From a virus (taxonomy: Duplodnaviria > Heunggongvirae > Uroviricota > Caudoviricetes), in the IMG/VR virus record IMGVR_UViG_2645727970_000001, positions 1 through 6,146 of that record: DNA of 6,146 nt, one strand, 5' to 3'. Position 1 is the first letter of the stretch. Every line of letters starts with the position of its first letter. The notes beneath the pieces are model-generated. The model did not search any database. It had not been told where the DNA came from and saw only the letters and a program-made list of their open reading frames with translations. The position numbers and the translations under genes were made by a program. Shown here one piece after another: positions 1,474-5,907 of the stretch.

Positions 1474-1497
1474 TAAAACCAACATAAGGAACCACCC

Positions 1498-1629
1498 ATG
1501 ATTTACGCAATCGCGGGAGGCGCTCGCATGGGTGCCTTCCAACTAAATGAATCTTTACTTGAACGAATCACCCGTAAATTACGTGACGGATGGAAAAGAG
1601 TTGAGGTCTTATTATGCGCAATGAAATAG
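1498..1629 (+). CDS. cIII: CIII-like regulator (FtsH/HflB inhibitor that stabilises CII), short 43-aa form
   Basis: Not in the supplied ORF track (too short). ATG 1498 preceded by aagga. Translation MIYAIAGGARMGAFQLNESLLERITRKLRDGWKRVEVLLCAMK contains the ESLLERITRKLRDGWKR core that I recall from phage lambda CIII. The ORF ends earlier than lambda's 54 aa. Confidence 0.8.
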   Translation: MIYAIAGGARMGAFQLNESLLERITRKLRDGWKRVEVLLCAMK

Positions 1630-1766
1630 CCATCAATCACCAGATGCTTCGTGCTGCACAGAACAAAGCAGTAATAGCCAGATTTATTGGTGATTCCAAA
1701 ATGTGGCTTGAAGCAAATAAAGCGATGAAATCAGCTATCAACCTTCCGTGGTATCGCAGGAAATGA
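1614..1766 (+). CDS. kil: Kil-like small protein (candidate FtsZ/cell-division inhibitor), 50 aa
   Basis: Not in the ORF track. ATG 1614 lies inside the 3' end of cIII with gagg upstream. Translation MRNEIAINHQMLRAAQNKAVIARFIGDSKMWLEANKAMKSAINLPWYRRK has the FIGDxKMWxEA-type core I associate with lambda Kil / Rac KilR; position directly after cIII matches lambda gene order. Confidence 0.55.
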   Translation: MRNEIAINHQMLRAAQNKAVIARFIGDSKMWLEANKAMKSAINLPWYRRK

Positions 1767-1978
1767 GTTTTACAGATAACTGGTCAGACGAAGAATTCAT
1801 TCGTCAGATGAAAGAATTAATCGGTAACGAAGGAGATATTCATGTCACTTGCAACCACAGTGAAGGAGAGCAAGTTACAGAGACGCATGTACACGCAGAA
1901 AGCGCTAAGGTATCGCCAGAAGGGAGACCGCGAAGGAATGCGCGTATGCCTAAATGCGGCAAAGACTCGAAGTATTAA
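1763..1978 (+). CDS. Hypothetical small protein (71 aa from ATG 1763; track lists a GTG start at 1748)
   Basis: ATG 1763 overlaps the kil stop (aATGa), suggesting translational coupling. Acidic N-terminus, His/Cys-containing C-terminal half (HVTCNH...THVH...KCGK). Sits where gam/arf-type genes lie in lambda/P22-like phages but has no recognisable similarity. Confidence 0.55.
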   Translation: MSFTDNWSDEEFIRQMKELIGNEGDIHVTCNHSEGEQVTETHVHAESAKVSPEGRPRRNARMPKCGKDSKY

Positions 1979-2729: not shown

Positions 2730-3197
2730 ATGTCTCACTTGGACGGAATTATTAAAAGATTCGAGTCCAGCTACAAAGTTAATGAAACAACAGGTTGCTG
2801 GGAGTCTACCTATTCAAAAAACAAAGGAGGATACACAAAATTTGTAGCCTTTGGCGTAACAATGCTTTCTCATCGGGTTGCTTTTGAGCTTTATCACTCC
2901 CCCATTCCATCTGGGAAGATGGTTTGCCACAAATGCGATAACCCATGCTGCGTTAATCCTGAACATCTCTTTTTAGGTAGCGCGCAAGAAAACATGGACG
3001 ACAAGATAGCAAAAGGAAGGCATCGTGGAGCCAAGAAAGGTCATGCTCATCATGGTGCAAAATTAACAGAGTGGCAGGTTATAGAAATTAGGAAAAGACT
3101 CTCTGAAAAAGAGAGTCAGTACAAGATAGCAAAAGACATGGGTGTATCTCAATCAATTATAAGCAACATAAAAACTGGCAAGAGGTGGAGCAAATGA
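2730..3197 (+). CDS. HNH endonuclease (HNH_3-type, probable free-standing homing-type nuclease) with C-terminal helix-turn-helix-like region, 155 aa
   Basis: ATG 2730 directly abuts the upstream TAA (TAAATG). Motif [23 protein letters not shown] fits the H...C..C...N..H...N pattern of HNH nucleases. The coding sequence looks AT-richer than its neighbours by eye. Confidence 0.8.
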
Positions 3198-3713: not shown

Positions 3714-4010
3714 ATGCCAGCGCCTCTGTATGGTGCGGACGACGCACGCCGCTGTTCCGGCAATTCCGTATCGGAGGTGCTGGATAAATTCAGAAAAAAC
3801 TACGATCGGATAATGTCTCTACCGCAGGAAACGAAAGAGGAAAAGGAATTTCGCTATTGTATATGGCTTGCAGAGAAAGAAGAGCGCGAGCGAATTTACC
3901 AGACATCAATCCGACCATTCCGCAAAGCCACATATACCCACTTCCCTGAATATATCGACCCGCGCCTGCGTAATTACCGCTCACGCTATGGCGCTATCAG
4001 TAATGACTGA
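3714..4010 (+). CDS. Hypothetical prophage protein (98 aa)
   Basis: SD aggag 8 nt upstream of ATG 3714, 13 nt after the ssb stop. No recognisable motif; basic and Tyr/Arg-rich C-terminus. Confidence 0.65.
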
Positions 4011-4020
4011 GGAATTTACC

Positions 4021-4215
4021 ATGAGAGGACTTGCATACAATCCCGGCATTCTTCCGGCAGAAATGATTATTCGCCAACGCGTAAAGCCAATGCCATCGAG
4101 AGAGGAATTTCTTAAGAGAAATTCTTCTCCGTCAGTGAATCAAAACAAATATGTGACTGCTCCCCGCCCTGTCGGGCGAGGCTTCCCACTTCTCAGGCCG
4201 CAACCGTCTGTATGA
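4021..4215 (+). CDS. Small prophage ORF (64 aa as read) whose 3' part runs into the IS right end and tnpB; probably truncated or fused by the insertion
   Basis: SD tgagga 8 nt upstream of ATG 4021, 10 nt after the previous stop. The track's longer form (3868..4215) overlaps the 98-aa ORF and is unlikely. From about 4145 onward the sequence is IS-derived, so the native C-terminus is unknown. Confidence 0.35.
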
Positions 4216-4300
4216 CGGATTTACGCTGGCCTCCATGGGCAGAGACGACGTGTCCCGCCGCCTTTAGCTCCAGTATTCCTTTTTGCCGGATATTGAGTGC
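4125..4300 (-). ncRNA. Putative TnpB guide RNA (omega/reRNA) spanning the 3' end of tnpB, the IS right end and adjacent flank (predicted, not directly visible)
   Basis: Inferred from established TnpB biology: the guide RNA derives from the tnpB 3' end plus right end, with the guide read from flanking DNA. Only the hairpin at 4162-4181 is seen directly; extent is a guess. Confidence 0.3.
4162..4181. repeat. Subterminal imperfect palindrome of the IS, tnpB-proximal (right end)
   Basis: ccccgccc-tgtc-gggcgagg: 5-bp cgccc/gggcg stem with a conserved C/A mismatch, flanked by ct...ttc. Near-identical to the hairpin at 5887-5907. Confidence 0.65.
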
Positions 4301-5368
4301 TGCATTGATATCCCGGTCATGTTCAATACCGCATTCAGGGCATCGCCAGATGCGTTTATGAAGTGGCATTTCCGGCATCTTGTAACCACAACAATGGCAG
4401 GTTTTCGAACTGGCAAACCACTGGTCGAGTTTTACCAGGTGAACGCCTTTTTCTGCTGCCTTGTACTCCAGCTTTACGATGAAGCTGTGCCAGCCCGCAT
4501 CACCTATCGCTCTTGCCAGATTGTGGTTTTTCATCATGTTGGCTGTTTTCAGCGTCTCGACAATTACCGCTTGGTTTTCGTCAACAATTGCACGAGAAAG
4601 TTTGTGTTGAAAATCAGCACGGGCATTGGCAACCCGTTCGTGTAACGCAGCCAGTCGGATTCTGGCCTTTTTACGGTTCGCGCTTCCCTTTTGTTTGCGG
4701 GATAGCGCTTTTTGTTTGCGTCGCAGATTACGGCTGGCATTGATGAGATGACGAGGATTCGGAGCTTTTCCCCCATCAGACATGATGACATAGTGCTCAA
4801 GCCCCATATCCACACCAGTAATCTTTTCTTCCTCCAGATACGCTGGTTTCTCTGGTGTGGGAATACCGTCTTCACAAAGGATAGATGCGTAGTATTTCCC
4901 GGTGGCACTGCGAGTGATTGTTATGCTCCTCACTTTTCCCGCCATTACACGGTGTATACGCGTTTCTATCGGTGCCAGCTTAGGAATTTTGATGGCATTC
5001 TCCAGTACTTTAATCCCGACACAATGGTAGCTCGATTGCTTCCCATGTTTACGTTTAAACGTCGGGAATCGTGCTTTCAGCTTCGGATTAAAAAAGTTGG
5101 AAAACGCCACATCAAGATTAATCACCGCCTGTTGCAATGCCATTGAATCAAATTCTTTAAGCCAGGCATACCTGCGGGACTTCTTCGCCACAGACAACAA
5201 CGGTTTTAAATCTTTACGCGGACGTAAATTCACTCCGTGTCGCTGGTAAGCGTGTTTTTTGATGTTAAGAGCTTTGTTGTATGCAAAACGTACCGCACCG
5301 AACTGGGCATTGAGATACTCAGCCTGTTCGGTAGTGGGATATATGCGTACTTTTGTCGCTCTTAACAT
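4193..5368 (-). CDS. tnpB: TnpB (IS200/IS605 OrfB; RuvC-like RNA-guided endonuclease), 391 aa
   Basis: Translation shows a split RuvC fold with candidate catalytic residues in GVDMGLEHY (D), AVIVETLK (E) and [10 protein letters not shown] (D), plus a CxxC...CxxC zinc finger (CHCCGYK...CPECG). Full length with ATG start. Confidence 0.9.
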
Positions 5369-5412
5369 ACTCAGCGCTCATTGATATTATTCAATTATTT
5401 TAACAAATTGAG

Positions 5413-5850
5413 GTGATTTTTCAATTGAGCGAACAACATGAATCTCTTGAAGGCTTCCTTCGGAAGCGTCACAGTGTGAGCAAGCTCGTAGTACATTTAA
5501 TTTTCACGACAAAGTATCGCAGAAAACTTTTTGACGGATGCATGATAGAGCAACTACGGGAAGCTTTTTGTTCCGCCGCAGCAAAACTTGAATGCGAAAT
5601 TCTTGAAATGGACGGTGAGACAGATCATGTGCATCTGTTGGTTGCTTATCCGCCCAAACTGGCAGTCAGCGTCATGGTGAATAATTTGAAATCAGTATCG
5701 TCACGTTTGCTGTGCCAGCAAAACACACATTTACGAACACAGAGCAAAACAGGCTTGCTTTGGTCAAGATCCTACTTTGCATGTAGTGCCGGAGGTGCGA
5801 CGATAGAAACGCTCAGAACTTACGTTCAAAGCCAGTCAACGCCGGAATGA
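5413..5850 (+). CDS. tnpA: TnpA, IS200-type Y1 (HuH) transposase; translation probably starts at TTG 5425 rather than GTG 5413
   Basis: KYRRKLF near the N-terminus, HuH motif DHVHLLV, catalytic-type Tyr in LRTYVQSQ and LWSRSYF...GGA match the IS200 TnpA pattern. No in-frame ATG; GAGGTGA (5410-5416) sits 8 nt before TTG 5425. Divergent from tnpB across 44 bp. Confidence 0.85.
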   Translation: MIFQLSEQHESLEGFLRKRHSVSKLVVHLIFTTKYRRKLFDGCMIEQLREAFCSAAAKLECEILEMDGETDHVHLLVAYPPKLAVSVMVNNLKSVSSRLLCQQNTHLRTQSKTGLLWSRSYFACSAGGATIETLRTYVQSQSTPE

Positions 5851-5857
5851 TTTTTTT

Positions 5858-5875
5858 AAAGCCCTTCGGGCTTTT
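5858..5875 (+). other. Perfect 7-bp hairpin with TTCG loop just after the tnpA stop, inside the IS left end
   Basis: aaagccc-ttcg-gggcttt, preceded by seven T. Only a weak T-run follows, so it may be a structural or transposition-related element rather than a strong terminator. Confidence 0.4.
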
Positions 5876-5886
5876 CCGCCTTTCCT

Positions 5887-5907
5887 CCCCGCCCGCATTG
5901 GGCGAGG
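5887..5907. repeat. Subterminal imperfect palindrome of the IS, tnpA-proximal (left end)
   Basis: ccccgccc-gcatt-gggcgagg: same stem and same C/A mismatch as 4162-4181, same orientation, about 1.7 kb away. Confidence 0.65.

Follow-up and report, generated by a model that had tools for sequence, protein, structure and literature searches.

For the CIII protein of phage lambda, residues 14–37 (24 aa) are given as both essential and sufficient for activity in a passage of Kobiler et al. citing Kornitzer 1991 (PMC1838920), and the substitutions S17A, R24A, L26A, R27A, and R32A result in a cIII– phenotype (Kobiler et al., PMC1838920). The lambda Kil protein requires a core of helix, G19–D20 turn and helix for its activity (Naha et al., PMC11762379), and nearly all lambda Kil homologs bear a C-terminal RSK/RSSK motif (PMC11762379). 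A ZipA-dependent block of FtsZ assembly along with filamentation is reported in PMC3961180 and PMC11762379 only for lambda Kil and HK629 Kil. Beyond lambda, cIII and kil genes with the lengths and the overlap described below are already known from several sources. The HK022 entry X16093 of GenBank annotates an identical "kil gene product AA 1–50" plus a ribosome-binding site, and the same Kil sequence is found in UniProt as VKIL_BPHK0. For Shigella phage Sf6, the annotation comprises a 132-nt "CIII" gene (gp32), a 153-nt "Kil" gene (gp31) and the following gene, with identical 16-nt and 4-nt overlaps, and the cIII and kil genes of CUS-3 are annotated with the same overlaps. Names assigned by NCBI complete this record.

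The DNA analyzed here, referred to as the window, is the whole stretch of 6,146 nt of the IMG/VR record IMGVR_UViG_2645727970_000001 (Caudoviricetes). At 1498–1766, the initial annotation had noticed a shortened cIII gene overlapping a kil-like ORF. With a probability of about 0.9, this segment represents the cIII-kil pair in the early-left (PL) operon of a prophage that is P22-like/lambdoid and of the same kind as Sf6, CUS-3, and HK97, in which cIII is short due to mosaicism and kil is probably initiated from its own Shine-Dalgarno sequence.

Gene Geometry and Family Assignment

The features of the segment and its immediate surroundings are as follows.

1486..1490, + strand: Shine-Dalgarno-like AAGGA of cIII, 7 nt before ATG 1498 (sequence reading)
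1498..1629, + strand: cIII, putative lambda-class FtsH-inhibitory lysogeny factor, 43 aa (Pfam PF02061, PHROG 550)
1549..1596, + strand: 48-nt cIII core, codons E18–K33 (DNA identity to lambda cIII 100%)
1597..1611, + strand: 15-nt linker specific to the Sf6-type allele, containing the kil Shine-Dalgarno sequence GAGG (segment identities)
1614..1629, + strand: cIII/kil overlap, kil codons 1–5 plus first base of codon 6
1614..1766, + strand: kil, HK022/HK97-type, Lambda_Kil family, presumed FtsZ-ring inhibitor, 50 aa (Pfam PF06301, PHROG 2055)
1763..1978, + strand: next ORF (ORF3), Sf6 gp30/HK97 gp42.1-like (PHROG 2123, E = 1.8e-40, residues 1–52)

From the full ORF reading of the window, cIII extends from ATG 1498 to TAG 1627–1629 and encodes a 43-aa product (MIYAIAGGARMGAFQLNESLLERITRKLRDGWKRVEVLLCAMK), while kil extends from ATG 1614 to TGA 1764–1766 with a 50-aa product (MRNEIAINHQMLRAAQNKAVIARFIGDSKMWLEANKAMKSAINLPWYRRK). 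Both genes share the stretch 1614–1629 (ATGCGCAATGAAATAG), 16 nt including the cIII stop codon, and the kil start codon is located 13 nt upstream of the latter. The following ORF is opened by ATG 1763 within an ATGA (1763–1766) on the kil stop. Hence, the coordinates given in the initial annotation, the 16-nt overlap and the overlap of the next ORF with the kil stop are all borne out by the ORF reading.

The assignment of both genes appears to be far beyond chance. CIII matches the Pfam family Lambda_CIII (PF02061) with 56 bits at a cut-off of 25.7 (E = 4e-15, model positions 1–33 of 42) and PHROG 550 ("CIII") with E = 1.6e-20. Kil matches Lambda_Kil (PF06301) over the full model (positions 1–31 of 31) with 72.6 bits at a cut-off of 27.6 (E = 1.7e-20), lambda Kil itself reaching 72.3 bits, and PHROG 2055 end to end (residues 1–50 of 50, E = 1.2e-35). 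The identities initially proposed for the two genes are thus confirmed by Pfam scores well over the cut-offs. In the NCBIfam HMM library, no match was obtained for cIII, kil or their neighbors, though the NCBI annotation names both. The proposed alignment with the lambda proteins gave the same picture, as both family relations hold: the recognizable central core of cIII is indeed kept, being identical to lambda at 48 of 48 nt, and in BLASTP, Kil aligns with lambda Kil at 57% identity along 30 aa (E = 3e-9), FIGDxKM included. However, the FIGD-KMW motif suggested as common to Kil proteins is shared only as FIGDxKM, since the lambda protein reads FIGDEKMF and has phenylalanine in place of the tryptophan.

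In the AF2 model of Kil (mean pLDDT 86), a helix at residues 2–25, a turn at G26–D27 and a second helix at 28–42 are predicted, corresponding to the helix, G-D turn and helix reported for lambda Kil. The C-terminal end is a basic YRRK in place of RSK/RSSK. A comparison of eight kil copies taken from various phages and genomes shows six variable nucleotide sites, all of them synonymous. By homology to lambda Kil, the 50-aa helix-turn-helix peptide would block FtsZ-ring assembly, and the window Kil is presumed to be an FtsZ-ring inhibitor by this analogy.

The 43-aa CIII (54 aa in lambda) does not have Pfam model positions 34–42 (ILNQPGVP) and shows VEVLLCAMK in that place. As ILNQPGVP is outside the region reported as sufficient for activity, it is not likely to be a functional requirement. 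Residues 16–39 of the window CIII align to lambda 14–37 with 18 of 24 positions identical, 17 of them consecutive (E18–R34), and all five residues critical in lambda are kept (as S19, R26, L28, R29, and R34). The last five residues of the 24-aa region read VEVLL versus LIDIL in lambda, four of them differing, and the changes in the essential region include I to E and D to V. In a single-sequence AF2 model, CIII is predicted as a single helix spanning residues 3–42, with pLDDT values of 91–93 over 21–40, which points to an α-helical core. The protein would be an amphipathic-helix peptide of the lambda CIII class and, by homology, might competitively inhibit FtsH, thereby stabilizing CII (and sigma32). 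In the cited lambda CIII and Kil literature, experiments on the 43-aa CIII allele or on HK022-type Kil were not found, and the activities that we infer for both proteins therefore rest on homology to lambda.

Origin of the Short cIII Gene

For tracing the origin of the cIII end, segments of the window were aligned pairwise with P22, lambda, and HK022 by MAFFT, resulting in the following identities.

1480–1548: 81% to P22, 48% to lambda, 61% to HK022
1549–1596: 75% to P22, 100% (48/48) to lambda, 42% to HK022
1597–1611: 40% to P22, 47% to lambda, 27% to HK022
1612–1766: 37% to P22, 49% to lambda, 99% (153/155) to HK022

Hence, the locus can be described as a P22-like 5′ part of cIII and a lambda-identical 48-nt core, which are joined via the 15-nt linker to an HK022-type kil. 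The core lies within the essential amphipathic-helix region and its 3′ end is a mosaic junction; taken alone, it has 100% matches in many E. coli genomes. The linker, with 100% identity to the Sf6-type allele only and at most 47% to lambda, P22, and HK022, encodes R34–L38 of CIII plus the first two bases of L39 and harbors GAGG at 1603–1606. When translated in the frame of cIII, the linker end together with the 5′ end of kil (TTA TGC GCA ATG AAA TAG) yields L-C-A-M-K-stop, in which the L is encoded by the codon 1610–1612 and the first 16 nt of kil provide CAMK and TAG. The same end, LCAMK-stop, is found in the 44-aa CIII of HK022, and upstream of a diverged Citrobacter-type kil allele (MHNQIIINHQK...) CIII ends with LCTTK-stop, the overlap again amounting to 16 nt. 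A natural recombinant is represented by phiSTEC801-Stx1a, where a window-like cIII 5′ part and core are followed by lambda sequence directly after GGATGGAAA, resulting in a 56-aa CIII that carries the lambda tail, and where kil is the lambda kil.

Thus, cIII is short because the locus is mosaic and the ORF ends inside the start of the HK022-type kil, and, judging from the aligned alleles, the 43-aa length is set by the attached kil allele and not by a truncating mutation. The C-terminal tail of CIII seems to travel with the kil allele and is probably dispensable, since the essential region ends just before it. Calling this cIII shortened is correct in comparison with lambda (43 versus 54 aa) but misleading in that a widespread, annotated mosaic allele is concerned and not a truncation specific to the window. 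What is clarified here is that the "short" CIII reflects lambdoid mosaicism, with junctions at the end of the core and just before the HK022-type kil, and since the 5′ end of kil determines the CIII tail, CIII length variation should not be taken for truncation or decay.

A decayed, non-functional cIII remnant with selection acting on kil alone would agree with the missing Pfam positions and with the divergence from lambda at the end of the essential region. This is nevertheless very improbable, as the exact 43-aa sequence occurs on at least 1000 contigs and the allele is found in phages recorded as temperate or lambdoid (Sf6, CUS-3, mEp213). Moreover, none of the five lambda-critical residues has been lost, the 24-aa region stated as sufficient in the passage on lambda CIII is there, and an independent CIII class, the 44-aa one of HK022, is similarly short and shares the tail. 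The HK022 protein was reportedly found active by Kornitzer et al. in 1991.

Wide distribution applies to both genes of the pair. A 701-nt query around it matches 355 phage records, with Sf6, N7, and IME10 matching at full length (97.4–97.6%), and 30 phage records carry the window CIII at 99% identity or more. The CIII and Kil proteins of the window are 100% identical to Sf6 gp32/gp31 and to the CUS-3 cIII/kil products, and annotated 100% identical proteins are also present in E. coli PA45B. Of 5426 complete E. coli genomes, 502 contain the 269-nt unit at a coverage of at least 80%, and in these PGAP names the products "protease FtsH-inhibitory lysogeny factor CIII" and "host cell division inhibitory peptide Kil"; like CIII, the exact Kil protein occurs on at least 1000 contigs, and both are named by NCBI. 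By sequence, the segment can hence be regarded as the ordinary annotated cIII/kil pair of an Sf6/HK022-type lambdoid prophage.

Translation of kil

The start of kil lies within the end of cIII, as is typical of a coupled gene pair, and the compact arrangement had led to the suggestion of coupled translation. Corresponding overlaps between cIII and the next gene in related phages are listed here.

Lambda: 32 nt (kil/gam, 46 nt)
P22: 20 nt (downstream gene a DUF5444 Kil)
HK022 and HK97: 16 nt
Erwinia phage Midgardsormr38: 4 nt

Obligate coupling would mean that translation of kil depends mainly or entirely on ribosomes just coming off cIII, by which the Kil:CIII ratio would be fixed. This is unlikely, albeit in agreement with the position of the kil start 13 nt before the cIII stop, with the ATGA overlap of the next ORF and with the finding that all lambdoid types examined retain an overlap of cIII and the gene after it, including those with another family encoded downstream; diverged alleles likewise retain the 16-nt geometry. 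However, kil possesses a well-spaced GAGG of its own (GGAGG in HK022), and a masking RNA structure is not predicted at the junction. The 91-nt region around it is no more stably folded than its shuffled versions (z = +0.55), which holds for P22 as well (z = +0.53), whereas a modest z of –1.94 was obtained for the corresponding region around the lambda cIII stop and kil start. Coupling mediated by RNA structure is thus not supported. An obligate dependence of kil on cIII translation is further argued against by the lambda strain CC4506, in which a point mutation removes the cIII start codon and active Kil is still made from PL (PMC3961180). In addition, short overlaps are commonplace in phage early operons and, as overlaps of cIII with the next gene are general in lambdoid PL operons, the arrangement is not special to the window. 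Consequently, the compactness does not in itself point to coupled translation as initially suggested, and coupling of kil to cIII, possible but unproven, is rather weakly supported. Somewhat more doubtful than obligate coupling is the idea that the CIII end is an overprinted by-product of the downstream kil allele and the strictly kept 16-nt overlap of HK022-type alleles functional, for which the co-varying residues LCAMK-stop/MRNEI versus LCTTK-stop/MHNQI at constant overlap could be considered. If true, the kept overlap could reflect selection for termination-reinitiation setting the Kil:CIII ratio, and/or CIII without the tail could be degraded by FtsH at another rate than lambda CIII, resulting in a shifted set point between lysis and lysogeny.

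Initiation of kil at the internal Met11 (ATG 1644), which is aligned to the lambda Kil start, would abolish the overlap with cIII altogether. For this start, it might be said that the aligned lambda Kil lacks a counterpart of roughly the first 7 residues, that some database entries of 42–44 aa exist and that removal of the first 5 residues leaves lambda Kil active (PMC11762379). ATG 1644 is not preceded by a Shine-Dalgarno sequence, however, whereas GAGG is found 7 nt upstream of ATG 1614. Moreover, homologs of 73–84% identity share the conserved N-terminal decapeptide M[RHY]N[EQ]I[AIT]INHQ, and three diverged homologs have Lys for Met at position 11, hence lacking the alternative start. With the predicted helix beginning at residue 2 and PHROG 2055 covering residues 1–50 of 50, the internal start can be nearly dismissed, and the sequence comparisons support the kil start at 1614. 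Translation of kil from its own Shine-Dalgarno sequence (GAGG, 7-nt spacer) inside cIII is therefore the mode that we infer as most likely, with ribosomes finishing cIII possibly adding to kil initiation and coupling not being required.

The ORF starting at 1763 differs from kil in this respect. Its AGGA is only 1 nt before the ATG, leaving it without a well-spaced Shine-Dalgarno sequence, and because of this short distance termination-reinitiation at ATGA is the more plausible mode of its translation. Neither a promoter nor a terminator was located between cIII and kil by the respective scan, and no Rfam family reached the gathering score anywhere in the window.

Regarding the cIII 5′ coding region itself, a GC-rich hairpin (GGGAGGCGCUCGCAUGGGUGCCUUCC) is present at 1515–1540, and the 111-nt fold of 1470–1580 has a z of –2.29. 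For the lambda gene, translation of cIII is governed by alternative structures of the mRNA and by RNase III.

Operon Context and Other Features of the Window

The neighbors of the pair as far as abc2 are those of a typical P22-like/lambdoid PL operon; tnpB and tnpA, also listed, belong to an IS200/IS605-family element.

158–469: gene-17 homolog
505–1473: coiled-coil ORF
2022–2729: Rad52-like recombinase
2730–3197: HNH endonuclease (Pfam HNH_3, E = 1e-13)
Downstream of the HNH endonuclease: ssb
3714–4010: abc2
4193–5368, – strand: tnpB (OrfB_IS605 and Cas12f1-like TNB domain)
5413–5850, + strand: tnpA (Y1_Tnp)

Just upstream of the gene-17 homolog, a terminator-like hairpin with a T-run (TGCCCTCCAGTGTGAGGGCA TTTTTTT) is found at 119–146 on the + strand; in the PL operon of Sf6, a tL2A-like terminator is annotated at a similar position. 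Directly upstream of cIII, the ORF 505–1473 encodes a 322-aa protein with a long coiled-coil middle part rich in Glu, Ala, Lys, and Arg, for which no Pfam match was obtained. Its homologs are annotated as "TolA" or "coiled-coil domain-containing protein" (Sf6 gp33), and in E. coli PA45B it is frameshifted.

The small ORFs following kil are inconsistently annotated between genomes. About 25 N-terminal codons of ORF3 (1763–1978) are conserved as protein in diverged loci. ORF4 (1842–2018), which overlaps ORF3 and is read in the +1 frame, is equipped with a strong Shine-Dalgarno sequence, GAAGGAG, and possesses a conserved 56-aa counterpart in Sf6 (gp29), NCTC9104 and Citrobacter-type loci. In HK97, two extra nucleotides fuse the ORF3 frame to the C-terminal part of ORF4 (83 aa). 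At about 1965–2018, the window contains an extra C (GACTCGAAG) in comparison with the closest allele, NCTC9104 (GACT-GAAG), which alters the last ~17 residues of ORF4 to ...TRSIKSALFPWAVSILR instead of the conserved ...TEVLNQRYFLGPCPF, and the match to PHROG 1723 covers residues 1–45 only. The 30-mer spanning this site was not found in representative genomes by an exact-pattern scan. Among the matches listed for 1900–2030 in complete E. coli genomes, the near-full-length ones are 91.5% identical and only 2 records reach at least 99% in any piece. The extra C might be due either to a frameshift mutation or to an error in sequencing.

Further downstream, the HNH endonuclease (2730–3197) has a C-terminal helix-turn-helix and abuts the Rad52-like recombinase and ssb. 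While the order in Sf6 is recombinase, ssb and endonuclease, it is recombinase, HNH and ssb in the window, and the HNH gene may be a mobile insertion of the homing type. An IS200/IS605-family element at about 4160–5900, comprising tnpB and tnpA, interrupts a DUF2737 ORF (4021–4215, model positions 1–47 of 53). E. coli prophage matches end at window position 4160 or resume only near the window end, and the coverage of the window per complete E. coli genome is at most 66%.

Comparison With Known Systems

Two other FtsZ- or Kil-related proteins were considered as relatives of the window Kil and rejected. Rac KilR (E. coli K-12, 73 aa) is also a prophage-encoded FtsZ inhibitor but a β-sheet protein "not related" to lambda Kil (PMC12482147), and BLASTP gave E = 14, so the comparison with it that had been suggested is uninformative. 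P22 Kil belongs to another Pfam family, DUF5444 (PF17519) and not PF06301, and gave E = 0.22 in BLASTP against the window Kil, whereas P22 C3 is a member of Lambda_CIII, with a 20-nt overlap between its gene and the downstream "kil".

With lambda, the window shares the gene order, the operon and the overlapping of the cIII and kil genes, the overlap itself being 32 nt in lambda versus 16 nt. The CIII core ESLLERITRKLRDGWKR is identical in both proteins, and the 48-nt stretch containing it is identical in DNA, whereas the 17-residue tail of lambda CIII (NQPGVPKNGSNTYGYPD) is absent from the window CIII. Lambda Kil (47 aa) resembles the window Kil in the FIGDxKM turn region and the helix-turn-helix fold at an overall identity of about 47%, but does not have the 7-residue N-terminal extension and shows an RSSK-type end where the window protein ends YRRK-type.

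HK022 and HK97 are closer with respect to kil. Their Kil is 100% identical in protein to that of the window, the HK022 DNA agreeing at 153 of 155 positions over 1612–1766, and they likewise have the 16-nt overlap and a CIII ending with LCAMK-stop. In contrast, the remainder of HK022 CIII (44 aa) is different, as the protein, a member of the Pfam family PF08134 ("cIII"), has an identity of only about 40% to the window CIII.

The closest correspondence is found with the Sf6 type, although the window deviates from it by the HNH gene between recombinase and ssb and by the IS200/IS605 insertion downstream. Sf6 (gp32/gp31), CUS-3, mEp213, mEp043, HK633, HK544, and Sf101 all have the same cIII-kil pair as the window, with a 132-nt and a 153-nt gene, the 16-nt overlap and the ATGA overlap with the next ORF, flanked by the same kind of neighbors, namely the coiled-coil gp33 upstream and recombination genes of the Rad52/Erf type downstream.
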